64,000 nucleotides of DNA from Actinomycetes bacterium (GCA_021824095.1 JAKALQ010000001.1:2131-66130); one strand, 5' to 3'; counted from the stretch's first letter, positions 1-27,623 are shown. A program made the numbers and translations. Notes: a model not told the origin generated them from the letters alone.

Positions 1-53
1 AGGCCGTACTCAAAGACGGAGCAGCGGAACCTCATCGTCTCGTGTGCGTCCAT
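1..53 (-). CDS. 5' end of an unidentified CDS that runs off the left edge of the window
   Basis: ATG at 53..51 is preceded by a GGGGAGAGG-type RBS (reverse complement of ~57..65). Only 17 codons (MDAHETMRFRCSVFEYG) are visible, so no family call is possible. Confidence 0.25.
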   Translation of the reverse strand, partial: MDAHETMRFRCSVFEYG

Positions 54-163
54 ACACCTCTCCCCACCACGCGATGCAGGTGACCTTCGCAATGTATGCG
101 CGAGCACGGCGCTGTGTATAGGGTCACACGGACGCACGGTTCCCGTCGCTTCCAACTATCCCG

Positions 164-1000
164 CTACGACGTGATGTCCTTGCGGTCGAATGCCAACACC
201 CCGATCGTGACGAACACGGCGAAGAGCACCACCGCATACGCGCTTCCGCGGGCCATGTTCGACCAGTCGATCGAGGGGCTCAATGCATCCGTCCAGGCCT
301 GCGAATAGTGCCCGGGCAGCCAGTTGCGCAGATCGCCAAGCGCGGTGATGGCATCGAGGATCTGCAGCACGATGACGATGATGACGGCACTGCCGACAGC
401 ACCGAGCGGCACGTCGGTGCGCACACTCACGAAGAACGCCAGCCCGGCAGCGACAAGCAGTGAACAACTGATGTACCCGGCAACCACAAGCACGCGGCCA
501 AGCGCAGCTCCGGTGGTGAAGGTGCCACCCACAGGGCTCACGAGCGACGCGCCGCCGAACGCGACCCAGCCGATGGCGAACGAGATGAGGGTGAGCGCCG
601 CGACGGCAGCGAGACTCAGGAGGGCGGCAACCCGCAACTTCACCCAGAGCAGTCGCCGTCGTGGCACAGGAGCAGACAGCAGGTAACGCAGCGTCGACCA
701 GGAGGCCTCCCCCGCCACCGTGTCACCGAAGAAGAGCGCCGTCACGGTGGTGAGCAGGAAGCCCGATCCGAAGAACAGCATGACGAGCACGAAGTTCCAT
801 GCGCCCTTCGTGGAGAGGTCGATGAGGTTCACACTGCCGGTGCTGCTGGAGCTTCCGGAGGCAGGCCCGAATTTGATGGCGAGCACCACGAACAGCGGCA
901 GTGCGAGCATGAGGAGGAACGCGACGAGCGTCCGACGACGTCGCACCTGTCGGATGAGTTCCGTCCGGAAGGGCAGTGGGTGCTGGGTGCGCTGCGTCAT
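164..1000 (-). CDS. ABC-2 type transporter permease
   Basis: 278-aa ORF, strongly hydrophobic with several predicted TM stretches and an N-terminal basic cytoplasmic segment (RQVRRRR). Its ATG overlaps the stop of the upstream ATPase-fusion gene (ATGA at 997..1000). Confidence 0.7.
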   Translation of the reverse strand: MTQRTQHPLPFRTELIRQVRRRRTLVAFLLMLALPLFVVLAIKFGPASGSSSSTGSVNLIDLSTKGAWNFVLVMLFFGSGFLLTTVTALFFGDTVAGEASWSTLRYLLSAPVPRRRLLWVKLRVAALLSLAAVAALTLISFAIGWVAFGGASLVSPVGGTFTTGAALGRVLVVAGYISCSLLVAAGLAFFVSVRTDVPLGAVGSAVIIVIVLQILDAITALGDLRNWLPGHYSQAWTDALSPSIDWSNMARGSAYAVVLFAVFVTIGVLAFDRKDITS

Positions 1001-3579
1001 GTCGTACCGATCGCCAGGTCATCGCCGATGACGTCCATGAAAAAGTCCTCGAGGTGCATGTGGGTGCGGCCGGCAAGCAGGGTGGCGGTGTCGCCCTGCA
1101 CGACCAGGCGGCCGCGGTGCATGACGACGACATGTGAACAGGTCTGCTCGACCTCGCTCAGCAGGTGCGATGACACGATCACGGTGCGACCGGTGGCGGC
1201 ATAGCGCTGCACCACGTCGCGCATCTCACGAATCTGTTGTGGATCCAGGCCGTTCGTGGGCTCATCGAGGACGAGGAGGTCGGGCATGCCAAGCATGGCC
1301 TGCGCGACGCCGAGGCGCTGACGCATGCCCTGGCTGTAGGTGCGCACGGTGCGATCGATCGCCGTGCCGAGGTTGGCGATGGCGAGGATCTCCTCAAGGT
1401 TCGGGTCAGTGTCCGAGCGCCCGCAGGCTTGCCAGTACAGGTCGAGGTTCTGTCGCCCGGTGAGGTGCGGCAGGAATCCGGGACCCTCGACGAGTGCGCC
1501 CACGCGCGCGAGGACCGGGTCGCCCGGTGTGACGCGGGTGCCGAACACGAACACGTCACCCGCCGTGGGGAGGATAAGCCCGAGCACCATGCGCATGGTG
1601 GTGGTCTTCCCGGCGCCGTTGGGCCCGAGCAGGCCGATGACCTCGCCGCGTGGGATGCGATACGAGATGCCGTCCACGGCGCGCAGGCCGTGGGCGAACT
1701 CCTTCACCAGGCCCTCGACGGCCACCGGCACATCGCGCAGGTCTTCGCGAACATCGCCCTGATGGCGACGCGGTCGTCGCACCGCGAGCAGGAGCAGGAG
1801 CAGGAGGACGACGCCGGCCGCACCAGCCGTCCACCACCACGCCGGCGTTGAGGCTGTGAGCGGCTGCAGGCTGGCGGTCGCGACGGACACGCTGGGGTCG
1901 GCAAGCGCAATCGTGTAGAGGGCAGGGCGCTCCGGGGCCCGATAGGCGAAGTCCGTGGTGGCGAATTCGACGCGCAGCACATCGCCGGGCTCGGCCGTGG
2001 AGTAGATCGCCGGCAGGTCAACGGTGACCGTGGTGGGGGTGGGCCCGATGTTGGCGAGGCGGATGGGGGCGACGAGTCCCTCCGGCAAGGTCTCGATGCC
2101 TGCGGGCGTCACAAGCCGAAGGCTGGCGAACAACACGACATCGGAGACGGGTTGCGGGCTGGAGATGGTCACCCGCACACGGCTGCTGCCGACAATGGCG
2201 AGGGGCGCGGTGAGCGGCGCGGAGGGGAAGGCCGCGAACTGGCCGGGCACTGGTCGCGCGAGCAGGCTCGCCGCAGAACCCAGGCCCGGGAGGGCCGAGA
2301 TCGCCGCTGGGATGCCACCTGCCGGCGCCACAACCTGCTGCGCCGGCGCCTGGAGGGCAACGCGCACCGCCTGCTCACCGGCGATGCCGGGGTAGCGGGA
2401 GGCGCGCTCGATGGTGGTCTTGGTACCGCTGCTGCGCCCGAGCAACGGCCCGGTGACAAGGGTGGCTTCGAAGTCGTTGCTCACATGCCCGACGTGGCGC
2501 AGGTACTCGTTGCACCAGTCGGTGACGAGCTGGTTGAGACGTTGCTGCTCGGAGATGCCGCCATCATGGCCACCGCTGTGCCACACCACCTTGAGTGGCG
2601 TGCGGGGATGCGCTGCGGCGATCTCACGCGCGGTCGCGTCCGCCTGAGATAGGGGGAACAGTGAATCGGCCTGACCGGCCATGAGCAGTGTTGGTGCCGT
2701 GATCCGGTTGGTGACGCTCGCGGGCGACGAGGCGCGCAACAGGGCGAGGCCCTGGGCGTCGACGCTGCCGGTGTGCACCGCCTGCTGGTAGAGCGCGCAC
2801 CACTGCGGAGCGAAGCGGCCACAGACACTGGCCTGTCCCGGGATCGTCGTGGAGCCGGCAGTGAAGAGCGACGCCGTCCAGAGCTTCTTGAACACGCCGA
2901 GCTTCGTGGAGCCCTGCACCTGTTGAGGGAACAGCGCCTGTTGCAGGTCGTTGTAGGTGATGTCGGCCGCGACCGCGTCGATGCGGTGGTCGTAGCCGGC
3001 CGCCAGCAACGCGAGCGCTCCGCCGTAGGAGGCGCCGACGACGGCGACGCGTGGATCACCGGGCGCATCCAGTTGCACACCTGAAAGGGTGGCCACCGTG
3101 TCGATGATGCGCCGGACGTCCGCCACCTCGAACTGCGGCGAGTCCATGGAGATGCTGCCGGTGCTGCGGCCGAAGCCGCGCGCGGAGTAGGCGATGGCGA
3201 TGAAGCCGGCGTCGGCCAGCGTGCGCGCCTGGTCCGCAACCGACAGCTTGCTGCCGCCGAAGCCGTGGGCGAGCACCACGACGGGCGCAGGGCCGGACTG
3301 GTGCGGTCGGTAGATGTCGACGTCGAGGCGAACCGGCGTGGGATCGGTGGCGGTGGTGGGGCCACCCGCCACGGTGATCGTCTGCGGGGCGGCCGCATCG
3401 CGCACAACAAACTGCGGAGCGTGTGCAGGCTGCGCATGGGGCATGGCACGCGCGGGAGCCGGTGATGCGGCAACGGCGGACGGCGCTGCAGCCATGAGCA
3501 CGGCCGCGAGCGCCAGCGTCGCACCGGCAACGCCGGACTTGCCGCGTCCCGAACCGCCCTGCCACATGCCGCCCATCAT
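997..3579 (-). CDS. Fusion protein: signal peptide + alpha/beta-hydrolase (CocE/NonD / peptidase S15-like) ectodomain + single TM helix + ABC transporter ATP-binding domain
   Basis: Uninterrupted 860-aa ORF. The N-terminus has a signal-like segment (GVAGATLALAAVLMAAAPSAVAASPAPA). Hydrolase motifs are HGFGGSK, the nucleophile elbow GASYGG, GQADSLF and GGHDGG. The TM helix WWWTAGAAGVVLLLLLLLAV is followed by RRPRRHQ, consistent with the positive-inside rule. The ABC domain has Walker [10 protein letters not shown], signature YSQGMRQR, Walker B LLVLDEPT and H-loop SSHLL. Confidence 0.8.
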   Translation of the reverse strand: MMGGMWQGGSGRGKSGVAGATLALAAVLMAAAPSAVAASPAPARAMPHAQPAHAPQFVVRDAAAPQTITVAGGPTTATDPTPVRLDVDIYRPHQSGPAPVVVLAHGFGGSKLSVADQARTLADAGFIAIAYSARGFGRSTGSISMDSPQFEVADVRRIIDTVATLSGVQLDAPGDPRVAVVGASYGGALALLAAGYDHRIDAVAADITYNDLQQALFPQQVQGSTKLGVFKKLWTASLFTAGSTTIPGQASVCGRFAPQWCALYQQAVHTGSVDAQGLALLRASSPASVTNRITAPTLLMAGQADSLFPLSQADATAREIAAAHPRTPLKVVWHSGGHDGGISEQQRLNQLVTDWCNEYLRHVGHVSNDFEATLVTGPLLGRSSGTKTTIERASRYPGIAGEQAVRVALQAPAQQVVAPAGGIPAAISALPGLGSAASLLARPVPGQFAAFPSAPLTAPLAIVGSSRVRVTISSPQPVSDVVLFASLRLVTPAGIETLPEGLVAPIRLANIGPTPTTVTVDLPAIYSTAEPGDVLRVEFATTDFAYRAPERPALYTIALADPSVSVATASLQPLTASTPAWWWTAGAAGVVLLLLLLLAVRRPRRHQGDVREDLRDVPVAVEGLVKEFAHGLRAVDGISYRIPRGEVIGLLGPNGAGKTTTMRMVLGLILPTAGDVFVFGTRVTPGDPVLARVGALVEGPGFLPHLTGRQNLDLYWQACGRSDTDPNLEEILAIANLGTAIDRTVRTYSQGMRQRLGVAQAMLGMPDLLVLDEPTNGLDPQQIREMRDVVQRYAATGRTVIVSSHLLSEVEQTCSHVVVMHRGRLVVQGDTATLLAGRTHMHLEDFFMDVIGDDLAIGTT

Positions 3580-3699
3580 GCACCCCGACCTGCAGACCGC
3601 CGCGTCCGGGACGTACCCCTGGTCCGAGACGGTGGCTCCCGGATCTGGGATGCGCTCCCCGAGTCAGAGAAGGTCGCCCCGAGTCTGGCGCGCAGCTTC

Positions 3700-3765
3700 T
3701 TCGCTTCGCTCCCTGACGAGCCACGCGACACTGCGTGTCGCGGGCTCGTCAGGGAGTGAAGCGAA
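3700..3765. repeat. Long near-perfect inverted repeat (31-bp stem, 3-nt loop) in a divergent intergenic region
   Basis: 3700..3731 pairs with 3735..3765, checked base by base: one bulged A (3723), one G-T wobble (3708/3757) and loop TGC (3732..3734). The right arm contains the GTG (3735) that opens the PAP2 ORF in the track. Confidence 0.75.
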
Positions 3766-4283
3766 CGGTCAGGCCGTTGCGGGCGCTACGCTCCGATGCC
3801 GTGGACTCCATCATCGTCGCCACCGCGCAGTATGTGCCATTCCTCATCCCGCTCGTCGGGCTGCTCGTGTGGTTGCAGCTGGAGCGCCGCGACAAGGTGG
3901 CGCTGGCCATTCGCGGAGTCGTCGGCCTGATCGTCGCCCTCGCGCTGGTGAAGGTGTTCGGCCACCTCCACACGGATCCGCGCCCCTTCGTCACCGATCC
4001 CACGGTGAAGCCGCTGTTCCCCCACAGCGCCGACAACGGCTTCCCCTCGGATCACACCTCACTCGCCTTCACCGCGTCCCTACTGGTGCTCGCCTACCGT
4101 CGACGCGTCGGCATCGCCCTGCTCGTCGTGAGCCTGCTCGTCGGCCTGGCCCGCGTGGCTGCCCACGTCCATCATCTGCAGGACATCATCGGTGGCATCG
4201 TCATCGGCGTCCTCGCGGCGATGGCGGCGGTGTACGTCGAGCGCCTCATCACAAGCCGTCGCCCGGACCGCGTTCGTCGCTGA
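3735..4283 (+). CDS. PAP2 (type 2 phosphatidic acid/undecaprenyl-diphosphate phosphatase) family membrane protein
   Basis: PAP2 signature blocks are present: K-x9-RP (KVFGHLHTDPRP), PSDH (a PSGH variant) and R-x5-H-x3-D (ARVAAHVHHLQD). The protein is multi-TM. The start is uncertain: GTG 3735 lies inside the hairpin arm, and in-frame GTG 3801 (VDSIIVATAQ..) is an alternative. Confidence 0.75.
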   Translation: MSRARQGVKRTVRPLRALRSDAVDSIIVATAQYVPFLIPLVGLLVWLQLERRDKVALAIRGVVGLIVALALVKVFGHLHTDPRPFVTDPTVKPLFPHSADNGFPSDHTSLAFTASLLVLAYRRRVGIALLVVSLLVGLARVAAHVHHLQDIIGGIVIGVLAAMAAVYVERLITSRRPDRVRR

Positions 4284-4333
4284 CACGGCGCTTGCGCGGG
4301 CTCGTTGATCGAGCGCGCATCCGGCGTCTGGCC

Positions 4334-5392
4334 TCAGCCGGCCATCGCAAGTGCGCGCGACTGTGCCCGCAGGTTGGCCGGAGGCGTAGCGTCCGGCACC
4401 TCACAACCAGCCATCGCGATGAAGCGCTCGCCGCCTTTCAGGCGGCATTCGAGCGTTCCAGCGATGACGTCATCCTCCGTGCCCTGCATGAGGATGGTGA
4501 CCGGATTGATGTTGCCGCAGATCGCGGCAGGTGCGACCGTCGCTGCCGCAACATCGAAGGGCACCATGGAATCAACGTCGATGATGTCAGCGCCGGTCTG
4601 GGCCATCTCGGCCAGTAGGTGCGTGGTGCGGCCACAGATGTGCAACCGGGCCAGCGCACCGCGCGAATGGACGGCGTCGATGATGCGTCGTTGATACGGC
4701 AGGGCGAACTCGCGGTACATCGCGGGCGAGATGAGCGACGTGACCGCATCGCCGATTCCGATGATGTCCGCCCCGGCATCCACTTGTGCCTCAGCAAATG
4801 CGATCTCCTGCAGCGTGCAGAACTCCAGCAGCGCGTGCACCCACGCGGGGTCCTCGGAGACGTCAATCATGATCGGGCTCACGCCGCGCAGATCCGCCGC
4901 CTCGGCCATCGCGCCTTCGACCCAGCCCATGATGGGGATCTCGCCGCCGACCTTCGCTCGGAAGTCATGCAGTGCGGCCAGGCGATCGCTCATGCGCCTG
5001 CCCATACCCGGATCGACGAGCCGCAGATGGTCGATGGATGACCGCTCGACCAGGAGTGGGTCCGCGAGCAGCGGTTGGTCATCATCCGGGAACTCGACAT
5101 CAGAGCCGAGGTCCGCGGCCTCGCGGTAGGGATCGGAGATGGCCTGCACGATGTCAAGGCCGAAATCCTCAACCACGCGGTAGTTCGCATCCGTGAGTGC
5201 ACGATGGTCGAGGTAGTAGTCACGCATCCGGTGCCCCGCGTGGTGCGCAGCGAACGTCATCATGATGTCGAAATTCAGCGGCCGATCCGTCGCCTCACCG
5301 GCGAGGGTCGCACGCAGGCGCTCCATGGAATTCACGAGATGCCCCTCCTCATCCCCCGCCCACTGGTTCACACGCGCCGGGTGAGTGAGCAC
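4334..5392 (-). CDS. Uroporphyrinogen decarboxylase (URO-D) superfamily protein, MtaA/CmuA-like Zn alkyltransferase type
   Basis: 352-aa ORF with a URO-D-like TIM-barrel sequence pattern. A His-x-Cys...Cys zinc motif is present (LHICG and MAGCEVP), as in methylcobamide:CoM methyltransferases. The true start is possibly the internal ATG at 5326 (MERLRATLAGE..). Confidence 0.7.
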   Translation of the reverse strand: MLTHPARVNQWAGDEEGHLVNSMERLRATLAGEATDRPLNFDIMMTFAAHHAGHRMRDYYLDHRALTDANYRVVEDFGLDIVQAISDPYREAADLGSDVEFPDDDQPLLADPLLVERSSIDHLRLVDPGMGRRMSDRLAALHDFRAKVGGEIPIMGWVEGAMAEAADLRGVSPIMIDVSEDPAWVHALLEFCTLQEIAFAEAQVDAGADIIGIGDAVTSLISPAMYREFALPYQRRIIDAVHSRGALARLHICGRTTHLLAEMAQTGADIIDVDSMVPFDVAAATVAPAAICGNINPVTILMQGTEDDVIAGTLECRLKGGERFIAMAGCEVPDATPPANLRAQSRALAMAG

Positions 5393-5463
5393 CCGCGCAT
5401 GCGCCCCATCCTGCGCCCTGCGGTCGATCGGTGGCTAGGGGCGGAGGCGGACAAACGTCTGCG

Positions 5464-6267
5464 TCACCCGAGGAGGGCGTCGATGCGCTCGAGCACGTAG
5501 GTGGGACGCTGGGCGGACGGGGCATCCGCCACCATGTCGCGCGTGCTCTCACCGGTGAGGACGAGTGCAGCATCCATCCCTGCTGCAACCCCCATTGCGA
5601 TGTCGGTGTAAAGGCGGTCACCCACCATGACGCATTCATCCGGTCGCAGCCCCATGCGCCGCATCACGGTCTCCACCATGATCGGGTCAGGCTTGCCGAC
5701 ATTCACCTCGCAACGAACGCCCGTGCAGGCCTCGATCGCGGCCACGATGGCAGCTGCGTCCGGCTCGCCGCGCCCGCCAGGGAACGGGCAGAAGCGATCC
5801 GGGTTCGTCGTCACCAAACGAACCCCCCGATCAGAGCGCAGCGCATCAAACGCGATCTGCAACTTGCGGTACGTGAAGTCCCGGTCATAGCTCGCGATGA
5901 CGATGTCGATGCGCTCCGGATCGGAACTGAGTCGCAACCCGGCCTTCGCCACCGCCTGCACGAGAGGCTCCTCGCCGATGACGAAGACGTTGGCCTCCGG
6001 CGCATGCCCGACAAGCCAGTCCGTCATCGTGACGACGGTGTTCACGATGTCCGTGACGGGAGTTGGGAGGCCGAGGCGCGCAAGCTTGTCGGCGTACATC
6101 GCCGGATCCTTCGTCGGGTTGTTCGACAGGAACACCGTCCGGGCCCCGCGCTCACGCAAGCCGGTGACGAGGTCGAAGGCGCCGGGAAGGAGGCTGTCGC
6201 CGAGGTAGATGGTGCCGTCGAGGTCGAAGATGTACCCGCCGTAGCGCCGCATGACCGCGGTTGTCAT
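5464..6267 (-). CDS. HAD-IIA family sugar-phosphate phosphatase (NagD/AraL-like)
   Basis: DxD nucleophile motif FDLDGT, LSNN motif (FLSNNPT), and C-terminal GKP...MVGDRLYTDI motifs typical of the HAD-IIA subfamily. The ATG overlaps the upstream stop (ATGA at 6264..6267). Confidence 0.85.
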   Translation of the reverse strand: MTTAVMRRYGGYIFDLDGTIYLGDSLLPGAFDLVTGLRERGARTVFLSNNPTKDPAMYADKLARLGLPTPVTDIVNTVVTMTDWLVGHAPEANVFVIGEEPLVQAVAKAGLRLSSDPERIDIVIASYDRDFTYRKLQIAFDALRSDRGVRLVTTNPDRFCPFPGGRGEPDAAAIVAAIEACTGVRCEVNVGKPDPIMVETVMRRMGLRPDECVMVGDRLYTDIAMGVAAGMDAALVLTGESTRDMVADAPSAQRPTYVLERIDALLG

Positions 6268-7793
6268 CGCGTCGTCGCCTGCTCGCCGATGCGCGCAAGG
6301 CCGGGGAAGATGCCTCGCAGTGCCGGGTAGATGCCACGGTAGACGCCGTACAACTCCTCGTAGATGGGCACGCGATCCGGGTCTGGAGTGAAGTGCGCGC
6401 CGATGCCACTCATCTCACAAGCGGCAGTCTCGATGTCCGGATGCAGGCCCGCTGCGACCGCGGCGAGCATGCCCACCCCAAGGCAGGTGCTCTCCGGCTC
6501 ACGGACGATCGCGACATCGCGCTGCAGGACGTCAGCCATGATCTGCGACCACACCCGACTGCGGGACCCACCACCGAGCGCGATGAGTTCACGCACCGGC
6601 GTCCCGGACGCCGCCTCCGCCCCCTCCGTGAGGAAGCGTTGCTCGTAGGCGATGCTCTCGAGGAGCGCCCGGTAGACGTGCGACTTCCCGTGTGCACCCG
6701 TGAGCCCGATCATGGCACCGCGTGCGTGCGGGTCCCAGTAGGGGGTGAGCGCGCCAGTCCAGTACGGGAGCACCATGAGCCCGTCGGCACCCGGCGGCAG
6801 AAGCGCCGCTGCCGTCTCGAGGACCTGCTCCGGCGATAGCTCGAGACCGAGCGCACGTGGGTCGACGCCGGCGAACTTGTTCACGAACCACTGCAGGTTG
6901 AAGGTGCCGCCGCCGATGAAGGTCTCGAAGGTGTAGCCACCGGGCACCGCGGCTGAGAGGACGCGGAAGGCATGGCTGTGTGCGTAGGTGCGGCTGTAGG
7001 TGCCAGCCACGACGCCACTGCCCATGTTGAGGTAGCCGCGTCCGGGCAGGATGGCGCCGGTGCCGAGCTGCGCCGATTGGCCGTCACCGAGTCCGGCAAC
7101 GATCGGGGTTCCGCGGGGGATGTTCAGCTCATCGGCGACGTCGTCGGCAATGGGGGCGACGATGTCACCAGGGGCGACGAGTCGGCAGAACTGGTCACGC
7201 GAGAGGCCGGCCTCGTCGAGCAGTGCGTCGGAGTAGTCGAACGTCGTCATGTCGATGACCCCGAGTGGGTCGGCGCTCCCCCACGACGTCACCCATGCGC
7301 CGGTGAGGCGATGGTTGAGGAAGCCCTGGACGTCGACGATGTGTGAGGCGCGGTGCAGGGTGCTCGGCTCATGGGTGCGCAGCCACAGGAGCTTGTACCA
7401 GGCCGGAGTGAGGTTCGGTGGCTTGCCGGTGATGCCGTGCACTCGCTCGGTGCCGTGCTCCTCGACCTCACGCACGGCACGGCCGTCCATCCACAGCATT
7501 GCGGGACGCAGCGGCTGCCCGAACTCATCGAGGCAGACGAAGGTCTCCCGCTGGTGCGTCACCGCGATCGCTGCGATGCGCGCACTGTCGACGGACTGCA
7601 CGACGCGCGCGAGTGCACGCCGCGTGACCACCCACCAGTCCTCTGCGTTCTGCTCGCCCCACCCGGGGTGCGGATGGCTCGTCTCGTAGGTCGCACGGGC
7701 CTCGGCGATGGCACGGCCCTGCGCATCCCAGACCACCGCCTTCGCAGCCGTCGTCGATGCATCGATGCCGATGACGAGATCACGATCGGTCAT
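6264..7793 (-). CDS. FGGY-family carbohydrate kinase (xylulokinase-like)
   Basis: 509 aa. The N-terminal IGIDASTTAAKAVVWD and HPHPGWGEQNAEDWW motifs match FGGY kinases, and the C-terminal GGGSRS motif is present. ATGA overlap with the upstream gene at 7790..7793. Confidence 0.85.
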   Translation of the reverse strand: MTDRDLVIGIDASTTAAKAVVWDAQGRAIAEARATYETSHPHPGWGEQNAEDWWVVTRRALARVVQSVDSARIAAIAVTHQRETFVCLDEFGQPLRPAMLWMDGRAVREVEEHGTERVHGITGKPPNLTPAWYKLLWLRTHEPSTLHRASHIVDVQGFLNHRLTGAWVTSWGSADPLGVIDMTTFDYSDALLDEAGLSRDQFCRLVAPGDIVAPIADDVADELNIPRGTPIVAGLGDGQSAQLGTGAILPGRGYLNMGSGVVAGTYSRTYAHSHAFRVLSAAVPGGYTFETFIGGGTFNLQWFVNKFAGVDPRALGLELSPEQVLETAAALLPPGADGLMVLPYWTGALTPYWDPHARGAMIGLTGAHGKSHVYRALLESIAYEQRFLTEGAEAASGTPVRELIALGGGSRSRVWSQIMADVLQRDVAIVREPESTCLGVGMLAAVAAGLHPDIETAACEMSGIGAHFTPDPDRVPIYEELYGVYRGIYPALRGIFPGLARIGEQATTR

Positions 7794-9226
7794 ACGAGTT
7801 CCTCCATCGTGCGTGCGAGAGCATCGGCGTCATGGAGGATGCGCGCGACCAACGCGTCGTCCCACCCACCGAGATGGTGCAGCACATCAACCGCGGTGAG
7901 CCGGTTGCGCATCATGTGGCAGTTGCGCAGCGCCCACGCGGCAAGCTCGGGTGCGGTCGTCGGTTCAAGCGCGGTGAATGTGGAAGCAACGCCGGCGGCC
8001 TGCAATGCCCGCGCGATGGTGCGTGCCGGCTTCACCAGCGCCTGGAACTCAGCGCGACGTCCCGGCCACTCGCGCACGAATGCCGCCACCGCGGTGCGCT
8101 GCGCATCCCAGCGGTCAAGCTTCGCGGCGTAGTCAGGCCAGCACTCCTCCGCAAGGGCGTCGGACCCGCCGAGTCCCGCGAAGGCATGAAGCACGGCTGC
8201 CCGCTCCGCTTCACGATCGATCACAGGCGGCACGAATGCCTCACCGTGCAAGGCATCGAGCCTCGCGACGAGCTCGTCCCACACGAGCGACGCGACGACA
8301 CTCGCAACGCCCACCTGCGCACCATGGAGCCCGATGCTGCGATGGGCCGAGGCGTTCGCCATGTCGAGCATGTGGCTCACGAGGTGCTCGACACCGGACA
8401 GCAGTGCCGTCGAACCGGCGACGCCGGTAGCGACGCCGCGGATGTCGAGTGCCCGTACGAGCGCGGACGTCGACTCCGGGTCCGCCTCGGCGAGCCCGGG
8501 TGACCAGTCCTCGATGCCCTCGCCTACGGCGTGCAACAGCGCCACTGGCCCCCATGAGAAGCCGTCATCGAAGCCGAGGTCGCGCGCGAGCAGCCAGTCG
8601 GCTGGTGCGACGAACATGGAGTTGATCTCACCGAAGCCCGCTCGGTTCATCCGCGCCGGCGCCTCGGCGATGAGGACGGTGTCCGCGACGACGATGTCCG
8701 GCCAGCGCGAGGGCACGGTGCGCTTCACGCCGTTGCGGAGGATGACCGAGACGTCATCGGTGAAGCCGTCGACGGATGCCGCGGTCTGAACAGTGATGAC
8801 GGGCACGTTGCCGGCGCCGACGGACGCCATCTTCCCGATGTCGGAGATGGTGCCGCCGCCCATGGCGACGATGACATCGACCCCCCGCGCTGCAGCACTC
8901 GCCTGCGCGATGACGTCCTCCGATGCGTGCAACTCGGGGTACCCGTCATCGAGCACGAGCACCTCGACATCCGACTCCCGGGCGAGTAGCGCGGCAACGT
9001 AGTCCTTCGCCGGCACGCCCCTGCGCATGATCGGGGTGCGATCGACGACGAAGAGGAGTCGTGGGCGACGTCCCCCGATCCCCTGCATGAGGTCGCGCAC
9101 CTTCGCGGGGATATCCGGGAGCACGTTGGCACCCACGAGGATCTCGCGTGTCCCGCAGGGTTCCACGCGTTCCCCGGGGTGTGCAGCGATGACGCAGTTC
9201 ACGGCATCGATGAGGTTCTCGTTCAT
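7790..9226 (-). CDS. Iron-containing alcohol dehydrogenase family protein, glycerol-1-phosphate dehydrogenase (AraM)-like
   Basis: MGGGTISDIGK nucleotide-binding motif and His-rich metal region (VEHLVSHMLD...GLHGAQVG). I place the start at ATG 9226 (MNENLIDAVN), which overlaps the upstream stop (ATGA at 9223..9226). The track ORF's extra 77 N-terminal residues are Arg/Pro-rich and overlap the upstream gene. Confidence 0.78.
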   Translation of the reverse strand: MNENLIDAVNCVIAAHPGERVEPCGTREILVGANVLPDIPAKVRDLMQGIGGRRPRLLFVVDRTPIMRRGVPAKDYVAALLARESDVEVLVLDDGYPELHASEDVIAQASAAARGVDVIVAMGGGTISDIGKMASVGAGNVPVITVQTAASVDGFTDDVSVILRNGVKRTVPSRWPDIVVADTVLIAEAPARMNRAGFGEINSMFVAPADWLLARDLGFDDGFSWGPVALLHAVGEGIEDWSPGLAEADPESTSALVRALDIRGVATGVAGSTALLSGVEHLVSHMLDMANASAHRSIGLHGAQVGVASVVASLVWDELVARLDALHGEAFVPPVIDREAERAAVLHAFAGLGGSDALAEECWPDYAAKLDRWDAQRTAVAAFVREWPGRRAEFQALVKPARTIARALQAAGVASTFTALEPTTAPELAAWALRNCHMMRNRLTAVDVLHHLGGWDDALVARILHDADALARTMEELV

Positions 9227-9969
9227 TGCGATCCTGTCGGGTCGCCCTGGTCGTCCCAGGGATGGGTCTGGAAGTGCGCGTCGAGCACCTCGCGCAGTGC
9301 TGTGATGCAGGCGTCCGCCGTGGCGGCGGGGGAGACGTCGGTCGTCGGGAGCACCGACTGCGGGTCGAAGGGCAGGGCGAGGGCGCCGTACACATCCGTA
9401 AGGACGTCCCGCACTCGTTCGCCGTCGCCGCAGACGATGCCAGCGCCGAACATCCATCCACCGCGCACGATGCGCTGCGCCGTGCCGGCGATCTTGTGCT
9501 GGCCCGCAATGCCGAGGCTGTAGTCCCCCGGGCAGTACTCGTCGACGGCGGCACCCATCTCGGTGGCCACACCGACGTTCTGGAGGGCGTCGCGGATGAG
9601 GCCGGTGAGTGTCGTGAAGCGCTCCTGCGTGCCCGCATGCGGTTCCGCCTCTGACGCCGAGAACTCGATGCAGACAGACGCGGGGGTGTAGGCCACCGCA
9701 TGCCCGCCGGGTGCACGGAGCACCGGGAGGAAACCGTGACGCAACGCGGCGTCGACGGCCCTGTCGTACCCGGGGTTCACGCGGTCCCGCCCGCCGAAGG
9801 CGACGACGGGACGCGGTCGGTAGATGCGCACGAGCGGCAGTCCCCCGATCGCGGTGACCCTGCGGAGGTACGCCGGCCCCATCGCGAGGTCGCTCGTCCC
9901 GGTCTGCATGACGACCGACCAGCGGGCCCGAGGTGCCAAGTGGTCGGTCGTCGTGAGCGCCGGAGTCAC
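9223..9969 (-). CDS. Lipoate-protein ligase A family (BPL/LplA/LipB domain) protein
   Basis: LplA-type catalytic-domain pattern including the conserved lysine motif (HKIAGTAQR) and RAPGGHAV. The start is uncertain: GTG 9969 lies 5 nt after the E2 stop, and ATG 9909 is the alternative. Confidence 0.72.
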   Translation of the reverse strand: MTPALTTTDHLAPRARWSVVMQTGTSDLAMGPAYLRRVTAIGGLPLVRIYRPRPVVAFGGRDRVNPGYDRAVDAALRHGFLPVLRAPGGHAVAYTPASVCIEFSASEAEPHAGTQERFTTLTGLIRDALQNVGVATEMGAAVDEYCPGDYSLGIAGQHKIAGTAQRIVRGGWMFGAGIVCGDGERVRDVLTDVYGALALPFDPQSVLPTTDVSPAATADACITALREVLDAHFQTHPWDDQGDPTGSQ

Positions 9970-9973
9970 GTGG

Positions 9974-10642
9974 TCACCCGGTGATGGTGGCGGCAAGCTC
10001 GCGTCGCAGGGCGGCGAGGAATGCCGCACCGGCCGCACCGTCGACGGCACGGTGGTCGCAGGTGAGCGTGAAGGCCGCCATGGGGCGGATAGCGATGCTG
10101 TCCTCCACGACGGTCACCGTGGGCTTCGAGCTTCCGACGGCGAGGATGGCCACGGCCGGGGGATTCAGGATCGCCGCAAAGCGGTCGATGCCGAGCATGC
10201 CGAGGTTCGAGACCGTGAAGGTGGCCCCCTCATAGTCTGCCGTCGTGAGCGCGTTCGCTCGGGCGCGGACGACGATGTCACGACGACGCCCCGCAATGCC
10301 ATCGAGCGACAGCGCCTCGACACCATGGACGACGGGCACTGTGAGCCCCGCATCGGTCGCCACCGCGAGTGCGATGTTTACCTCCGGGAAGGCGGTGATG
10401 ACCTCGTCAGCGAAGTGCGCATTCAGCTCCGGCACCGCGATGAGCGCACGGGCACAGGCGGCGAGGATGAGGTCGGTCACCGTGACACCCGGGAGGGCCT
10501 TCGCATCCGCGATGGGCCGGGTCATGTCGACGTCGATGCTGAGCGAGAAGGCGGGAGCCGCCCATGCCTGCACCATGCGACGTGATGCGACGCGCCGAAT
10601 ACCCTTCAGGGGCGTGGCGGTTCCCTCGGACAGCACCGCCAT
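9974..10642 (-). CDS. 2-oxoacid/acetoin dehydrogenase E2 acyltransferase, catalytic domain only
   Basis: 222 aa starting at MAVLSEGTATPLKGIRR. Catalytic DHRxxDG motif (CDHRAVDGAAGAAFL) and SNLG motif are present. There is no lipoyl domain and no peripheral-subunit-binding domain. The start shares 1 nt with the upstream stop (TGATG at 10640..10644). Confidence 0.85.
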   Translation of the reverse strand: MAVLSEGTATPLKGIRRVASRRMVQAWAAPAFSLSIDVDMTRPIADAKALPGVTVTDLILAACARALIAVPELNAHFADEVITAFPEVNIALAVATDAGLTVPVVHGVEALSLDGIAGRRRDIVVRARANALTTADYEGATFTVSNLGMLGIDRFAAILNPPAVAILAVGSSKPTVTVVEDSIAIRPMAAFTLTCDHRAVDGAAGAAFLAALRRELAATITG

Positions 10643-11556
10643 CACCAGCCCCGATCCGCTGACACGGCCGCGACACGGACGTCGTCGGCGTGGCCGGCGC
10701 ACCCGTAGAGGCGCATCTTCTCGATGGTGGCCTCGACCATGAGCGCACGGCCCCGGGTCACCGCCACCTCGAACTGCCGATCGCCCTGCGCCCACGTCTC
10801 CTCGATGCCACGACGGAAGGCGAGCCGCAGGTCGGTATCGGCATTCAACTTGTGCACGCCGTGCTTCACTGCATCGGTGAGCTCCACATCCGGAACACCC
10901 GAGGCGCCGTGGAGGACGAGCGGGATGCCGACACGCTCCTTGATGTCACGGACGAGATCGATCGCGAGCGGCTGCGGCTCCATCGTCGGCACGCCGTGCA
11001 CGACACCCGCGGAGATCGCGAGGATGTCGATGCCGGTCTCGGCCGCGAAGCGCTCGGCCTCGTCCGGATCGGTGTAGTACGAACTCCAGTCGACGGCCTG
11101 GTCGGCATCCGGGATGCGGCCGAGCTCGGCCTCGACCATGACGCCGAAGTCGTGCGCGAGCTCGACGACCCGACGTGTCGTGCGGATGTTCTCCTCGAAC
11201 GGCAGGTGCGCGCCGTCGTACATAATCGAGGTGAAGCCGAGCTTGATGGCCTCGAGCACCTCATCGAAGGAACCGTGGTCCAGATGGATGACGTGCACGG
11301 CATCCGACTCCGCAGCGATGCGCTTCGTCATCTCGTACGCCTTGCGCAGACCGATGTGCGGGATGATCGCACGACCCACCTGGAGGAAGACCGGGGCGTT
11401 CGCCCGCTCAGCGGCGATGAGCAGCGCCTGCGTCGTCTCGTCGTTGTGCATGTTGAAGGCGCCGACCGCGTAGCCGCCAGCCTCTGCGGCGCGGACGATC
11501 GAGAGCGGGAGGTTCATGATGTCGTTTCCCCTTCGCAGGAACACTTCTGCGCTCAT
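10642..11556 (-). CDS. Class II (Zn-dependent) ketose/fructose/tagatose-bisphosphate aldolase family protein
   Basis: PF01116-like pattern: GYAVGAFN, HLDHG metal ligands, EAELG and LVLHGASG. The ATG at 11556 overlaps the upstream stop (ATGA at 11553..11556). The track ORF's 78 extra N-terminal residues were rejected. Confidence 0.85.
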   Translation of the reverse strand: MSAEVFLRRGNDIMNLPLSIVRAAEAGGYAVGAFNMHNDETTQALLIAAERANAPVFLQVGRAIIPHIGLRKAYEMTKRIAAESDAVHVIHLDHGSFDEVLEAIKLGFTSIMYDGAHLPFEENIRTTRRVVELAHDFGVMVEAELGRIPDADQAVDWSSYYTDPDEAERFAAETGIDILAISAGVVHGVPTMEPQPLAIDLVRDIKERVGIPLVLHGASGVPDVELTDAVKHGVHKLNADTDLRLAFRRGIEETWAQGDRQFEVAVTRGRALMVEATIEKMRLYGCAGHADDVRVAAVSADRGW

Positions 11557-13028
11557 GGGCGCACTACCTGAGTGAGCGCTCGCTGCCAGCCGGCATAGAG
11601 CGTTGCCCGCTCGTCCGCACCCATGTGGGGTTCGAACGTGCGGTCCACAGACCAGGTGGAGGCTGCGTCTGCGTGGTCCTTCCAGATGCCGGTCGCAATG
11701 CCGGCGATGTACGCGCACCCGAGGGCGGTGCGCTCGAGCTCCCGGGGCCGCACGACCTCGAGGTCGCCGATGTCCGCGAGGAACTGGCACAGCCAGTCAC
11801 TCTGCGCGCCACCGCCGTCGACCTTGAGCGAGGTGACGGAGAGGCTTCCGAGGTCGGGGATACGGAGGATGTCGACAGTCTGGTACACCATCGCTTCCAC
11901 CGCTGCACGGATGACGTGGGCCCGCGACGTCTCGAGGCTCATGCCGGTGAGCGCCGCGCGTGCATTGCGGTTCCAGTGCGGTGCGCACATGCCGCCGAAG
12001 GCCGGCACGATGTAGACCCCGCCCGTGCTCGCCACGCTGCTCGCGATGTCGTCGATGCGTGCACCACCGGCGCTGATGCCGAGTGACTCCTGCATCCAGC
12101 TGAGGGTCTGCCCGCTGTGGAAAACGACGCCCTCGCTCTCGTACGCGGTGGCGCCCTGCACAGTCCAGCCGACGCTCGCAGTGAGGCCGGGGACGAGCAT
12201 CGGTGTGGTGCCGGTGTTGAAGGTGAGGACGGCGGCGGTCCCGAAGGTGTTCTTCGCCGAGCCGGGCTCGAGACAGGCCTGCCCGAACATGCCGGCCTGC
12301 TGGTCCGCGATGACTGCTCGCACCGGGGGCTGATGCTCGATGAGGTCGGCCGCGACGCGACCGAAGTCGCCGTCACTCGGCAGCACAGTCGCGAAGATGG
12401 CCATCGGGATGTCGAGGCGGGCGCAGATCTCCTCGTCCCACGCGAGTGAGTCGAGGTTGAACAGTGCCGTGCGCGATGCACATGAGTGATCGGTCGCATG
12501 CATGGTGCCACCGGTGAGGTTCCACAGCACCCAGCTGTCGACGGTGCCCATGGCGATCTCCCCCGCCTCAGCGCGTGCCCGCAGCCCCGGCACCTCCTCG
12601 AGCAGCCACACGACCTTCGCGGCAGAGAAGAAGGAGTCATTGCGCAGGCCGGTGCGCTGCTCGAACATTGGTGCGAGGCCATCGTCCTCCCAGCGACGGA
12701 CGATGTCGTCGGTCTGCTGGGAGATCCAGACGACCGCGTCGTGCGCCGGAGCACCGGTGCGACGGTCCCACATGATGACGGTCTCGCGGTGACTCGTAAC
12801 ACCGACGGCGACGACATCCGCAGCGTCGACCTTCGCGACGGCCTCGGTGATCGCACTCCGCGTCGCGTCCCACAGCGCGATCGGGTCCATCTCGACCCAG
12901 TTCTGGCGCGGGTACTTCCAGGGGACGGATGCGCGACCGTCCGCGATGATGGTGCCCGCGGTGTCGACGAGCACCGCACGACAGCTGCTCGAGCCGGTGT
13001 CGATGGCGAGGATGAGATCGCGGCTCAT
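11553..13028 (-). CDS. Glycerol kinase family (FGGY) kinase
   Basis: GlpK-like motifs: LAIDTGSSSCRAVL, NWVEMDP, TSHRETV, VWISQQT, ADQQAGMFGQ and DGGGAQS. It diverges from canonical GlpK at several conserved positions. ATG 13028 overlaps the GlpD-like stop (ATGA at 13025..13028). Confidence 0.82.
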   Translation of the reverse strand: MSRDLILAIDTGSSSCRAVLVDTAGTIIADGRASVPWKYPRQNWVEMDPIALWDATRSAITEAVAKVDAADVVAVGVTSHRETVIMWDRRTGAPAHDAVVWISQQTDDIVRRWEDDGLAPMFEQRTGLRNDSFFSAAKVVWLLEEVPGLRARAEAGEIAMGTVDSWVLWNLTGGTMHATDHSCASRTALFNLDSLAWDEEICARLDIPMAIFATVLPSDGDFGRVAADLIEHQPPVRAVIADQQAGMFGQACLEPGSAKNTFGTAAVLTFNTGTTPMLVPGLTASVGWTVQGATAYESEGVVFHSGQTLSWMQESLGISAGGARIDDIASSVASTGGVYIVPAFGGMCAPHWNRNARAALTGMSLETSRAHVIRAAVEAMVYQTVDILRIPDLGSLSVTSLKVDGGGAQSDWLCQFLADIGDLEVVRPRELERTALGCAYIAGIATGIWKDHADAASTWSVDRTFEPHMGADERATLYAGWQRALTQVVRP

Positions 13029-14680
13029 CGCGCCGACCCCGGGGTTCCGGCGCCGAAGCTTGCCGATCGAGGACCACTGGGATCCGGGATGGCGAGGTGG
13101 TCGAGCCACTCGCGGTAGCCCTCGATCTCACGGCTGCGGCGCGCCTCGTCCCATCCGAGGAGGTCGGCCATGATGGCGATGACGTCATCTACGGCGGCGA
13201 GTCCGTGCTGCGGCTCAAAGGCGAGGAGGCTGCGTCGGGCCATAACGTCAGTGAGGGTGAGGGCGAACTCCGAGCGAACCGCGAAGGCGACCTCGGCCGC
13301 GATGGCACCGGCGCCCTCATCAATGACGCGGGCGAGATCCGGGGTCATGGTGACGAGGTTCCAGATGGCGAGCGCACGGCTGCCGTAGAGCGAGGACAGA
13401 CGCTCCGCGGTTCGCGCCCCGGCGCCCCCTGCAAGCAACCGCGTGCGCGTCTCTGCAACCGACGGACCAATGGCACCGGGGTAGGGACGACGACGGGTGA
13501 CGGTGCTGCGCCCTTCGCCACCGCGCATGCGCATCACCAGATCGACCGCATCCTCCGCGAGCTTGCGGAACGTGGTGAGCTTGCCGCCGACGACCGTGAT
13601 GAGACCCGGAAGGCCGTGTGCGGCATGGTCATGCAGGACATGGGTGCGGGGCACTTTCGACTCCGCCTTGTTCGGCACATACGGCAGGGGTCGCACGCCG
13701 CTGTACGTGTAGAGCACGTCGTCCAACGTGAGGTTCGCACCCGGGACGAGTGCGTTCACCTCGCCGAGGAGGTATTCGGCCTCACCGATGTCGCAGCGCG
13801 CATCATCGGGGTCACGCTCGAAGCGGATGTCCGTGGTGCCGAGCATGTAGCGGCCGAACCACGGGATGACGAGAACGAGTCGACCGTCGACGCGGGACTC
13901 GTAGTAGACGACGTCCGTCGGTGCACCCGGGAAGGGATCGACGATGAGGTGGCTGCCCTTCGTGCCGCCGTTGAGACGCGGCTGCGGACGGTCGGGCACC
14001 GTGAAGAGCCGGTCGATCCACGGCCCGGCCGCGTTCATGACGATGGGGGCGAGGACCTCTCCCTCCTCGCCGGTGAGGGTGTTCATGTAGCGCACGCCGA
14101 CGACATGACCGTCGCTAAGAATCGGGGCCGTGACCCGACTGTGGGTGCGCACGTCGGCGCCGTTGTCGATGGCATCGACCGTGAGCTCGACGCAGAGGCG
14201 TTCCGCGTACTCCACCTGACCGTCGTAGAAGACGACGGAGCCCTTGAGCCCTTCACCGGCGACGCCTGGGAATCGCTCGACGGTCCTGCGCCGCCCGAGG
14301 TAGCGGTGCCACGGCGCCGACTTCTTCAGGGAAAGCACGTCGAACAGGATCATGCCGAGCTCGACCATCCAGCCGGGACGCTGGTTGTGTCGAAACATCG
14401 GCATCATCCACGACACCGGCTTCACAAGATGCGGTGCGTCTCGGAACAGGCGCTCGCGTTCCGACAGCGACTCGTACACGAGCCCGAAGTCGAGGTGCTC
14501 CAGGTAGCGCAGGCCACCGTGCACGAGGCGTCCCGACCATGCGGAGACTCCCGCGCACACGTCCTCCTGCTCGAGGAGCACCACGGAGAGCCCACGCAGC
14601 GCGGCATCACGCGCGATGCCGATGCCATTGATGCCGGCGCCGACGACGATGAGGTCGACGTTCGTCTGCGGGGTTCCCAT
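13025..14680 (-). CDS. FAD-dependent glycerol-3-phosphate dehydrogenase family protein (GlpD/EryB-like)
   Basis: N-terminal FAD fold DLIVVGAGINGIGIARDAALRG, the GlpD-family HGGLRYLEH motif, and a C-terminal GlpD-type helical domain. Confidence 0.88.
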   Translation of the reverse strand: MGTPQTNVDLIVVGAGINGIGIARDAALRGLSVVLLEQEDVCAGVSAWSGRLVHGGLRYLEHLDFGLVYESLSERERLFRDAPHLVKPVSWMMPMFRHNQRPGWMVELGMILFDVLSLKKSAPWHRYLGRRRTVERFPGVAGEGLKGSVVFYDGQVEYAERLCVELTVDAIDNGADVRTHSRVTAPILSDGHVVGVRYMNTLTGEEGEVLAPIVMNAAGPWIDRLFTVPDRPQPRLNGGTKGSHLIVDPFPGAPTDVVYYESRVDGRLVLVIPWFGRYMLGTTDIRFERDPDDARCDIGEAEYLLGEVNALVPGANLTLDDVLYTYSGVRPLPYVPNKAESKVPRTHVLHDHAAHGLPGLITVVGGKLTTFRKLAEDAVDLVMRMRGGEGRSTVTRRRPYPGAIGPSVAETRTRLLAGGAGARTAERLSSLYGSRALAIWNLVTMTPDLARVIDEGAGAIAAEVAFAVRSEFALTLTDVMARRSLLAFEPQHGLAAVDDVIAIMADLLGWDEARRSREIEGYREWLDHLAIPDPSGPRSASFGAGTPGSAR

Positions 14681-14712
14681 GGTGCTCCTCCGATGTGTCT
14701 TCGTGTGGATGG

Positions 14713-14955: not shown

Positions 14956-14978
14956 TTCGTTTCCTTTCAGTCCGCCGC

Positions 14979-16984: not shown

Positions 16985-17009
16985 GAATGGGGTTCCTTTC
17001 GTGCCGGCG

Positions 17010-19591: not shown

Positions 19592-19643
19592 CTGGGGTCT
19601 CGGTCGGCCGCCCGATCTCCACCTCGGGCGGCCGACCGGGTTT

Positions 19644-20612: not shown

Positions 20613-20670
20613 GGGTTCTCCTTCTCTGGGGTGATCACGGCGGGGACCGCAATCCGGCAAGTCTGCATTT

Positions 20671-20765: not shown

Positions 20766-20807
20766 ATCGAGAGGCCGTCGCGATCAACGGGGAATCGAGG
20801 AGCAGCC

Positions 20808-23617: not shown

Positions 23618-23656
23618 GGCGGGTCCTTTCGTTCTTCGCTATGAGCCTCCCCGCTC

Positions 23657-27611: not shown

Positions 27612-27623
27612 ACGGGGGAGCAC

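Follow-up and report, generated by a model that had tools for sequence, protein, structure and literature searches.

Organization of the locus

The system described here lies at the beginning of a 64,000-nucleotide stretch of DNA from an Actinomycetes bacterium (GCA_021824095.1, JAKALQ010000001.1:2131-66130), hereafter called the window. Two genes on its minus strand encode what we regard, with high confidence, as a two-gene type-V ATP-binding cassette (ABC) system in which a type-I membrane protein bears a serine hydrolase of family S15 as ectodomain and ends, on the cytoplasmic side, in the ATPase. An ABC ATPase nearly always occurs as a free protein or fused to a membrane domain of its own, and this position below an active-looking serine hydrolase is an unusual topology for a nucleotide-binding domain (NBD). 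The two genes and their junction are as follows.

997..3579, minus strand: fusion gene, 860 aa, from the open reading frame (ORF) call, Pfam, full-length homologues and the identical protein on three contigs
997..1000, minus strand: ATGA overlap between the stop of the fusion gene and the start of the permease gene, exact in the sequence; translational coupling
164..1000, minus strand: ABC-2 (type V) permease, 278 aa, with an N-terminal amphipathic helix and six transmembrane (TM) helices (Pfam, AlphaFold2, fold match)

The ORF at 997..3579 runs over 860 codons without internal stop. The order of its parts is confirmed as a signal peptide, a two-domain CocE/NonD (S15) serine hydrolase, a TM helix and a complete ABC ATPase. 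Pfam places Peptidase_S15 (PF02129) at residues 83-338 (5.9e-20, 72.5 bits for a cutoff of 23), with Abhydrolase_1 as a further match in the catalytic domain, PepX_C (PF08530) at residues 447-549 (6.5e-5, 23.4 bits for a cutoff of 22.5) and ABC_tran (PF00005) at residues 636-776 (3.9e-26, 92.7 bits for a cutoff of 25). The four-part order that a preliminary description of this DNA had read in a single 860-aa ORF is thus borne out by the ORF and the Pfam positions, and the motifs it had named (GASYGG, GQADSLF, GGHDGG and RRPRRHQ) as well as the ATGA joining the fusion gene to the permease start are all where it had placed them. The same four-nucleotide overlap, or a gap of at most 15 nt, separates the two genes in loci L001, L002, L083, L086-L088 and L093. 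As the permease gene is the only one that consistently adjoins the fusion gene, the functional unit consists of these two genes.

The fusion in other genomes

At least 120 full-length homologues of 790-886 aa were retrieved from a search of 5.8 billion proteins; they are 54-81% identical, and each has both the S15 and the ABC_tran Pfam matches. Because these homologues score E = 0 across the full length, the fusion architecture is far beyond chance. A genome scan for related loci, which used generic NBD patterns, gave at least six fused loci; among the matches listed, the order hydrolase-NBD-permease was found in three Streptomyces genomes, in Lentzea, in Amycolatopsis and in an uncultured actinomycete. 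The same fused order is also present in Tsukamurella tyrosinosolvens and Nonomuraea gerenzanensis, and fused relatives occur in metagenome-assembled genomes (MAGs) named Nanopelagicales and Actinomycetales. With the ectodomain alone, an exhaustive HMMER search retrieved 319 clusters (50% identity) at E <= 1e-30, and about 50 of the best 150 of them are fused proteins of 808-1221 aa. The preliminary description had proposed to look for the same domain order in other genomes; it is found across Actinomycetota. The architecture is rare in kind and not in numbers, since it characterizes a large conserved actinobacterial family extending from Streptomyces and Tsukamurella to the abundant Nanopelagicales of freshwater.

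One would also wonder whether the long ORF comes from a sequencing or assembly error, or whether the NBD is additionally produced from an internal GTG. The window protein does have in-frame GTG codons, at residues 617, 619 and 625, and on one short contig the gene lies in two pieces. We find this explanation hardly credible. The identical 860-aa protein is present, with the same neighbours, on three independently assembled metagenome contigs; all close homologues, namely the best 120, are fused, and fused homologues are counted in hundreds, which rules out the artefact that had been named earlier as one possible refutation of the fusion. The gene in two pieces (390 and 456 aa) corresponds to P0272 (residues 405-860 of the window protein) and P0273 (residues 1-390), which together make up a copy almost identical to the window gene and belong to the same 90% cluster. 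Since the break sits inside the hydrolase (residues 390/405), away from the domain border, and on a single 5.9-kb ENA contig, this split is either a local or assembly error or a strain-level pseudogene. Another candidate for a natural unfused operon, in which P0140 (589 aa) precedes distinct genes for an NBD and a permease, was also rejected. There, the reading frame of the NBD continues upstream without a stop across the helix region, where it reads the post-helix R-P-K motif of the family, and the frame switches in a AGAGAGAGA run (AG repeat); this is thus a frameshift in a gene that is fused after all. At the hydrolase/NBD border no natural split was found, both apparent splits being frameshifts, one inside the hydrolase and the other in the AG repeat.

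At positions 3880..4070 of locus L089, on a contig of 43% GC that probably belongs to a freshwater actinobacterium, the fused gene is frameshifted in a AGAGAGAGA run, so that gene callers give a stand-alone hydrolase and a truncated NBD of 193 aa; such calls could mislead architecture counts.

As for a separate translation of the NBD, which had been suggested from the in-frame GTG codons, comparison of sequences does not support it as a conserved feature. In ten loci, no in-frame ATG, GTG or TTG ahead of the NBD is conserved, and two of these loci have none at all. A 5-mer resembling a Shine-Dalgarno sequence precedes the NBD only in L087; the GTG at residue 625 of the window protein is preceded by a weak 4-mer, GAGG, and the other loci have nothing of the kind.

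Members of the family bear generic annotation names ('alpha/beta fold hydrolase' from PGAP, 'ABC-2 type transport system ATP-binding protein' from JGI) that hide the hydrolase-NBD architecture. Our literature search, which included the combination of Peptidase_S15 with ABC_tran, found no paper describing or testing it. The preliminary description had named a common and already characterized family as a refutation, and this applies by half: the family is indeed common, but we found no characterization of it.

The hydrolase ectodomain

The extracytoplasmic part of the fusion protein comprises the following features.

2494..3384, minus strand: alpha/beta-hydrolase catalytic domain with cap, residues ~66-362 (Pfam; AlphaFold2 model; Foldseek matches to PaL lipase, CocE and alpha-amino-acid ester hydrolase, AEH)
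3019..3036, minus strand: nucleophile elbow GASYGG, residues 182-187, with Ser184 invariant in 35 and 53 sequences
2797..2823, minus strand: Cys253-x7-Cys261 (CGRFAPQWC) in the cap, probable disulfide, in 120/120 fused homologues
2656..2676, minus strand: catalytic Asp305 motif GQADSLF, residues 302-308, with D305-S-L-F-P invariant
2557..2574, minus strand: catalytic His338 motif GGHDGG, residues 336-341, with H338 and D339 invariant
1864..2478, minus strand: non-catalytic C-terminal beta-sandwich (PepX_C-like), residues ~368-572 (Pfam; all-beta model; CocE/NonD two-domain match)

A GxSYxG elbow is the hallmark of family S15. The ectodomain presents this elbow together with the Ser-Asp-His order and a C-terminal beta-sandwich packed on the catalytic domain, which are the features of S15/CocE-NonD enzymes. 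Ser184 (GxSYGG), Asp305 (DSLFP) and His338 (GHDGG) show no variation in the alignments of 35 and 53 sequences, and the triad motifs are kept in 119 of the 120 homologues. The CGRFxxxxC pair is kept in every one of them, and most secreted and sortase-anchored relatives retain the C-x7-C spacing. In exported actinobacterial proteins, an even number of conserved cysteines suggests a disulfide, and Cys253 and Cys261 would probably form one in the cap.

The AlphaFold2 model of residues 60-578 has a mean predicted local distance difference test (pLDDT) score of 90.5 and a predicted TM-score (pTM) of 0.92, and displays the full two-domain CocE/NonD fold. The hydrolase region announced in the preliminary description is therefore present, its extent being smaller than the ~570 aa given there since the ectodomain past the signal peptide covers ~520 aa (residues 60-578). 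The best Foldseek match of the model in the PDB is the PaL 'lipase' (8yzo/8yzn; E 3e-30, TM-score 0.71, 22% identity), the other best matches being cocaine esterase, AEH, the CocE/NonD protein SACOL2612 and X-prolyl dipeptidyl peptidase. Both domains of PaL, CocE, AEH and SACOL2612 are covered by the model, with TM-scores of 0.64-0.71. PaL is also the best PDB match by sequence only (5e-13).

The ABC ATPase domain

The NBD and its motifs are located as follows.

1000..1725, minus strand: ABC NBD, residues 619-860 (Pfam ABC_tran; NCBIfam; PDB sequence relatives ABCA3/4/1, NosF and Rv1218c)
1603..1626, minus strand: Walker A GPNGAGKT, residues 652-659, invariant
within 1474..1497, minus strand: Glu698 at the Q-loop position, invariant, Lys658+40
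1321..1338, minus strand: signature YSQGM, residues 748-752, invariant
1261..1278, minus strand: Walker B LLVLDE, residues 768-773, with catalytic Glu773, invariant
1162..1173, minus strand: H-loop His805, invariant

Walker A, the signature, Walker B Glu773 and H-loop His805 are all invariant in 35 sequences, as befits an ABC ATPase. Since the hydrolase triad and the NBD motifs are both invariant, the two enzymatic halves of the protein look active. The canonical glutamine of the Q-loop is replaced by Glu698 (VEGPGF). This glutamate is common to the fused family, to unfused paralogues and to related ABC-2 ATPases from Bacillota, Bacteroidota and others (loci L001-L080), and hence marks a wider clade and not the fusion. 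It is a known type of variant and does not reflect any loss of the domain. As a lead only, we presume that it may correspond to the 'E-loop' of lantibiotic-immunity ATPases.

The NBD is of the ABCA/DrrA/NosF-like class. Its PDB sequence matches are the lipid exporters ABCA3/ABCA4 (6e-58), NosF (4e-41) and Rv1218c (3e-35), and its NCBIfam matches are TIGR03740 (lantibiotic protection, the best one at 1.1e-53), DrrA, GldA and NodI, all far under their cutoffs.

The ABC-2 permease

The permease matches ABC2_membrane_2 (PF12679) with 35.7 bits for a cutoff of 27.2 and has the amphipathic helix, the six hydrophobic segments, the short loops and the fold of type-V permeases. Its coupling to the fusion gene, proposed in the preliminary description, is confirmed by this match, by the ATGA junction and by its position as sole consistent neighbour. 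In the AlphaFold2 model (pLDDT 81), the best fold match is NosY of the NosDFY complex (TM-score ~0.6, 19% identity, with a weak Foldseek E of 4e-3), followed by PmtCD, ABCH, TarG, ABCG2, KpsM, Wzm, Rv1217c and ABCA. Despite the weak E-values the list is homogeneous, the best 50 Foldseek matches being all type-V transmembrane domains (TMDs). No sequence relative of the permease was detectable in the PDB, either with the single sequence or with a profile. The loop between TM2 and TM3, GDTVAGEASWSTLRYLLSAPVPRRRLL, is especially conserved among permeases paired with fused genes. With NosY as the best match of the permease model and an NBD similar to those of NosF and the ABCA proteins, the system is a type-V ABC system. 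The earlier idea of an ABC module coupled to an extracytoplasmic hydrolase is kept as a concept, and the FtsEX/MacB fold to which it referred gives way to a NosY-like type-V permease.

Topology and geometry

Three segments of the fusion protein bear on its topology.

3469..3579, minus strand: Sec-type signal peptide, residues 1-37, with an n-region containing R12 and K14, a hydrophobic core and AVA|AS (hydropathy; cleavage inferred)
1780..1842, minus strand: single TM helix, residues 580-600, AWWWTAGAAGVVLLLLLLLAV (Kyte-Doolittle peak 2.27; all aligned homologues)
1726..1779, minus strand: cytoplasmic stop-transfer and linker, residues 601-618, RRPRRHQGDVREDLRDVP (R602, P603 and R604 nearly invariant, P618 invariant, length fixed)

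Hydropathy analysis reveals two hydrophobic segments, an N-terminal one at residues 15-41 and a strong helix at about 580-600. The RRPRRHQ motif starts at residue 601, directly past the helix, and the 15 residues ahead of the helix are uncharged. In the homologue set, the mean net charge is +2.55 over the 12 residues past the helix and -0.39 ahead of it. A hydrophobic N-terminus is observed in 115 of 120 homologues, and about 9 homologues have clear lipoprotein lipoboxes (e.g. LAAC|S). Stand-alone relatives of the ectodomain are secreted, or end with a C-terminal TM helix and an Arg tail, or carry the sortase signals LPATG/LAETG. By sequence heuristics, the protein has the marks of an exported surface protein (signal peptide or lipobox, disulfide, positive-inside anchor). 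Altogether, five independent arguments drawn from sequence, namely the Sec or lipobox N-termini, the Cys pair, the charge bias, the surface-anchored relatives and the necessarily cytoplasmic NBD, place the predicted hydrolase outside and the NBD inside, as the preliminary description had assumed.

The distances between the parts vary little. From TTD, the last invariant motif of the ectodomain, to Walker A there are 109-112 residues in 112 of 119 homologues, and, for 32 of the 42 fused representatives of greater divergence, the centre of the helix lies 59-66 residues from Walker A. The linker between the last beta-strand and the helix has about 10 residues, and the one between the helix and the first NBD strand has 18. 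With linkers so short and of fixed length, each hydrolase should stand only a few residues over the outer surface of the permease. This fixed spacing and the conservation on either side of the helix (a Trp belt outside, R-P-R inside) speak for an ectodomain set in a definite position right above the transporter, and against a loose connection.

These features bring to mind a mechanotransmission device, in which the ATP cycle of the NBD would move the permease and the fused helices and rearrange the ectodomains while nothing crosses the membrane. The hydrolase would be switched on or off, or the hand-over of a ligand would be driven, and the system would be a covalent type-V counterpart of NosDFY/FtsEX. 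The near-invariant spacing across the helix with both linkers short, the conservation of the Trp belt and of R-P-R, and the relatedness to NosDFY, which couples an ABC-2 module to a periplasmic partner (NosY being the best permease fold match and NosF among the closest bacterial NBD relatives), are all consistent with it. There would moreover be two ectodomains per NBD dimer, and related S15 enzymes act as dimers; CocE works in this form (e.g. PDB 3puh, titled 'biologically active dimer'). However, a single helix whose core is not conserved would transmit force poorly if it were not packed on the permease, and the permeases of MacB, FtsEX and LolCDE have another fold, with large periplasmic domains that are not present here. 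The catalytic triad is also fully conserved, so that the ectodomain is no mere regulatory pseudo-enzyme as some FtsEX partners are. We consider this mode of action, the main rival of the one proposed below, possible, though somewhat unlikely. A more specific version, which we hold to be unlikely, is that the helix packed on the NosY-like permease would gate, by covalent type-V mechanotransmission, a surface esterase or lipase engaged in the remodelling of an envelope lipid or a lipid-linked precursor, a housekeeping function kept even in the streamlined genomes of freshwater Nanopelagicales.

Unfused paralogues and stand-alone relatives

Many actinobacteria possess a paralogous, unfused NBD-permease pair with no hydrolase within 6 kb in the loci listed (L007-L012, L016, L021, L023-L025, L029, L034, L037, L043 and L044). 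In these loci, the NBD lies at ~6001-6700 and the permease at ~6900-7900; the hosts are Tessaracoccus, Kribbella, Nonomuraea, Arthrobacter, Pseudarthrobacter, Sinomonas and others, with ~50% identity to the window for the NBD and 30-35% for the permease. The ranges of identity to the window proteins are the following.

Fused systems: NBD 64-67%, permease 44-60%
Unfused paralogues: NBD at most 52%, permease at most 37%

By these sequence identities, the NBDs and permeases of fused systems form a clade separate from the unfused paralogues. Stand-alone actinobacterial homologues of the ectodomain share with it 34-47% identity over its whole length, the Cys-x7-Cys pair and a surface location; they differ from it by ending in LPATG/LAETG or in a C-terminal TM helix with an Arg tail, or by being anchorless, and no ABC genes adjoin them. 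The fusion likely originated when a surface hydrolase with a C-terminal anchor came to be linked, through that anchor, with the ATPase gene of an ABC-2 operon lying downstream.

On this basis, one could assume that the fusion serves for anchoring or co-expression only. A gene for a C-terminally anchored hydrolase would have happened to sit upstream of an ABC operon, and a harmless fusion would have been retained as a membrane anchor for a hydrolase and a transporter that serve unrelated targets. Stand-alone relatives do use other anchors (sortase, C-terminal TM helix) without ABC genes nearby, and the unfused NBD-permease pairs work without hydrolase. Nevertheless, the fusion has been retained across several Actinomycetota orders, with ectodomain identity down to ~40%; its linker lengths are fixed, the fused NBDs and permeases have a conserved clade of their own, and no natural split form was found. 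We therefore judge this explanation improbable.

Gene neighbourhood

Apart from the permease gene, the neighbours vary: PAP2, URO-D-like and HAD genes in the window, a DUF4349 gene in one Nanopelagicales-like MAG, sulfur-acquisition and Fic genes in Tsukamurella. The PAP2-family gene (lipid phosphate phosphatase-like) at 3735..4283 on the plus strand is divergent and lies 155 nt upstream of the fusion gene. A PAP2 gene in this place recalls BcrC next to the ABC-2 transporter BcrAB. Such a BcrC-like partner is missing from every other neighbourhood examined, even at 70% identity, and the PAP2 protein is therefore probably not a partner of the system.

A same-strand run at 4334..9457 (minus strand), continued upstream in locus L081 (1..7246), resembles a sugar/polyol catabolic cluster and appears unrelated to the fusion. 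It comprises an FGGY kinase, a class II aldolase, a short 2-oxoacid_dh-like protein, an LplA-like protein, an iron-containing alcohol dehydrogenase (Fe-ADH), a second FGGY kinase, a HAD phosphatase and a URO-D-like protein. In this run, the ORF at 7790..9457 (minus strand) has 555 aa, and gene callers give a 478-aa protein of the Fe-ADH family on the matching contig; the first 77 residues, rich in Arg and Pro, are probably untranslated. After the permease, beyond position 1 of the window, locus L081 contains on the same strand (11527..14358) a gene for a PAS-PAS-GGDEF-EAL signalling protein of 943 aa, which is not conserved beside other family members. In locus L087, from an Actinomycetales MAG, a second alpha/beta hydrolase of 515 aa (DLH/PETase-like/Abhydrolase_1; 10155..11702) is encoded two genes downstream of the fused system. 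Neither tRNA or tmRNA genes nor Rfam families at the gathering score were found in the window (1..64000).

The neighbourhood bears on whether the system scavenges nutrients, which the surface hydrolase would free from extracellular esters or peptides for import by the ABC module. S15 relatives include aminopeptidases and X-Pro dipeptidyl peptidases, and the family is abundant in freshwater Nanopelagicales, which are scavengers. However, no gene for a substrate-binding protein is conserved beside the pair, and the characterized members of the type-V ABC-2 fold are exporters, extractors and mechanotransducers. Import by this system seems very improbable to us.

Proposed functioning

Whatever its exact mode of action, the system probably links the use of ATP inside the cell to the hydrolysis of a membrane-associated compound outside. 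Tentatively, and with something less than an even chance of being right, we propose that an ester or amide of amphipathic or lipid-like nature is extracted or exported by the permease and then cleaved, outside the cell, by the tethered hydrolase. Of the underlying anatomy we are much surer. The N-terminal signal should export a CocE/NonD-type serine hydrolase predicted to be catalytically competent, the single helix should act as a stop-transfer anchor, and the NBD should remain cytoplasmic and bound to the permease; judging from the ABC-2 transporters of solved structure, the complex should assemble as (hydrolase-TM-NBD)2(permease)2. In the proposed mechanism, the ATP-driven permease would pull its substrate out of the membrane, or export it, and hand it over at the outer face to the hydrolase, the fusion guaranteeing a 1:1 stoichiometry and proximity. 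The substrate might come from the cell's own envelope (a lipid or a precursor) or be an antimicrobial that inserts into membranes (lipodepsipeptide, lantibiotic-like).

This proposal relies on three lines of reasoning. The nearest structural relatives of the ectodomain are esterases and a lipase; type-V transporters are biased towards lipids and amphiphiles (PmtCD, ABCH, ABCG, ABCA); and ZmaM-like peptidase-ABC fusions constitute a precedent for export-coupled processing. Several observations nevertheless weigh against extraction and cleavage. The 'lipase' label of PaL is the depositors' own. With 182 bits for a cutoff of 309.75, the match of the NBD to the lantibiotic-protection family TIGR03740 falls well short. 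The core of the TM helix is merely hydrophobic, without sequence conservation, and a specific packing on the permease would be conjectural. No conserved neighbour gene hinting at a substrate was found in the loci examined. Finally, NosDFY, the closest solved system, is thought to drive its periplasmic partner and not classical translocation, which favours mechanotransmission.

If an envelope lipid or an antibiotic aimed at membranes were the substrate, this family would be relevant to actinobacterial envelope biology or to intrinsic resistance.

Comparison with known systems

The system belongs to the ABC ATPase, ABC-2/type-V and S15/CocE-NonD superfamilies, and each of its parts can be set beside known proteins. 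The CocE/NonD (MEROPS S15) enzymes PaL (8yzn/8yzo), cocaine esterase, AEH, SACOL2612 and PepX have the same fold, elbow and triad order as the ectodomain. They differ from it by being soluble, without fusion to a TM helix or an ABC ATPase, and share only 12-22% identity with it.

A resemblance to the LanFEG lantibiotic-immunity transporters comes from the best NCBIfam match of the NBD (TIGR03740), a weak match of the permease to MutE/EpiE (TIGR03732; 17.6 bits for a cutoff of 145.2) and the glutamate at the Q-loop position, an 'E-loop' being typical of LanF proteins. However, these scores are far under the cutoffs, a single permease gene replaces LanE plus LanG, and no lantibiotic genes lie nearby.

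Type VII systems (FtsEX with EnvC/PcsB/RipC, MacB, LolCDE) similarly use cytoplasmic ATP hydrolysis to control extracytoplasmic hydrolysis or extraction. Their permeases have four TM helices with a large periplasmic domain between TM1 and TM2, and the hydrolase is bound non-covalently, whereas the window permease has six TM helices, a longest loop of ~30 residues and no type-VII structure among its fold matches.

ABC systems with attached extracytoplasmic enzymes are known already. In the prodrug-activating peptidases of the ZmaM/EdeA/PamJ type, which are fused to an ABC half-transporter (PMC9889268), an extracytoplasmic serine hydrolase is likewise covalently joined via TM helices to ABC parts, and cleavage at the outer face is coupled to export. 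Their hydrolase has an S12 beta-lactamase fold (PF00144) followed by a three-helix TMD and a TMD-NBD half-transporter, and they belong to non-ribosomal peptide synthetase (NRPS) clusters, mostly in Bacillota (PMC9889268). The window system differs from them by its S15 alpha/beta hydrolase and by its single helix, joined directly to an NBD that works with a separate ABC-2 permease; the fusion protein has no PF00144 match and no NRPS genes were found in any neighbourhood examined. Family 3.A.1.145 of TCDB, of unknown function, is also an ABC-2 system with a covalently attached peptidase, an M1 aminopeptidase located at the C-terminus of the permease, e.g. in Myxococcus Q1D520 (PMC3924187). There, the enzyme is a zinc M1 peptidase carried by the permease (13 TM helices, 1200 aa). 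We rejected this family as the same fusion, since the window permease is a plain protein of 278 aa and the serine hydrolase sits on the ATPase. The preliminary description considered NBDs as normally free or fused to their own TMD, and hydrolases as non-covalent partners. The arrangement is indeed of an unusual kind, and covalent precedents, wired differently, do exist in the ZmaM-like fusions (PMC9889268) and in TCDB 3.A.1.145 (PMC3924187). As for the S15-TM-NBD wiring itself, it is common in databases and we found no characterization of it in the literature.

The closest parallel can be drawn with NosDFY, the ABC-2 type complex of nitrous oxide reductase maturation, whose structures are PDB 7o0y, 7qba and 7znq. 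In both cases a type-V ABC module serves an extracytoplasmic protein domain; NosY is the best structural match of the window permease, and NosF is a close relative of the NBD. NosD, on the other hand, is a separate, non-hydrolytic periplasmic protein that is not covalently joined to NosF. Neither a NosD beta-helix partner nor a nosZ/nosL/nosR context is present at the window locus and in six other neighbourhoods. With its fixed stoichiometry and geometry, the hydrolase-NBD fusion would offer a compact natural system for studying how a type-V ABC module hands work or substrates to enzymes outside the cell, and the same question of coupling stands for NosDFY as well as for the lipid-handling ABCA and ABCG transporters.

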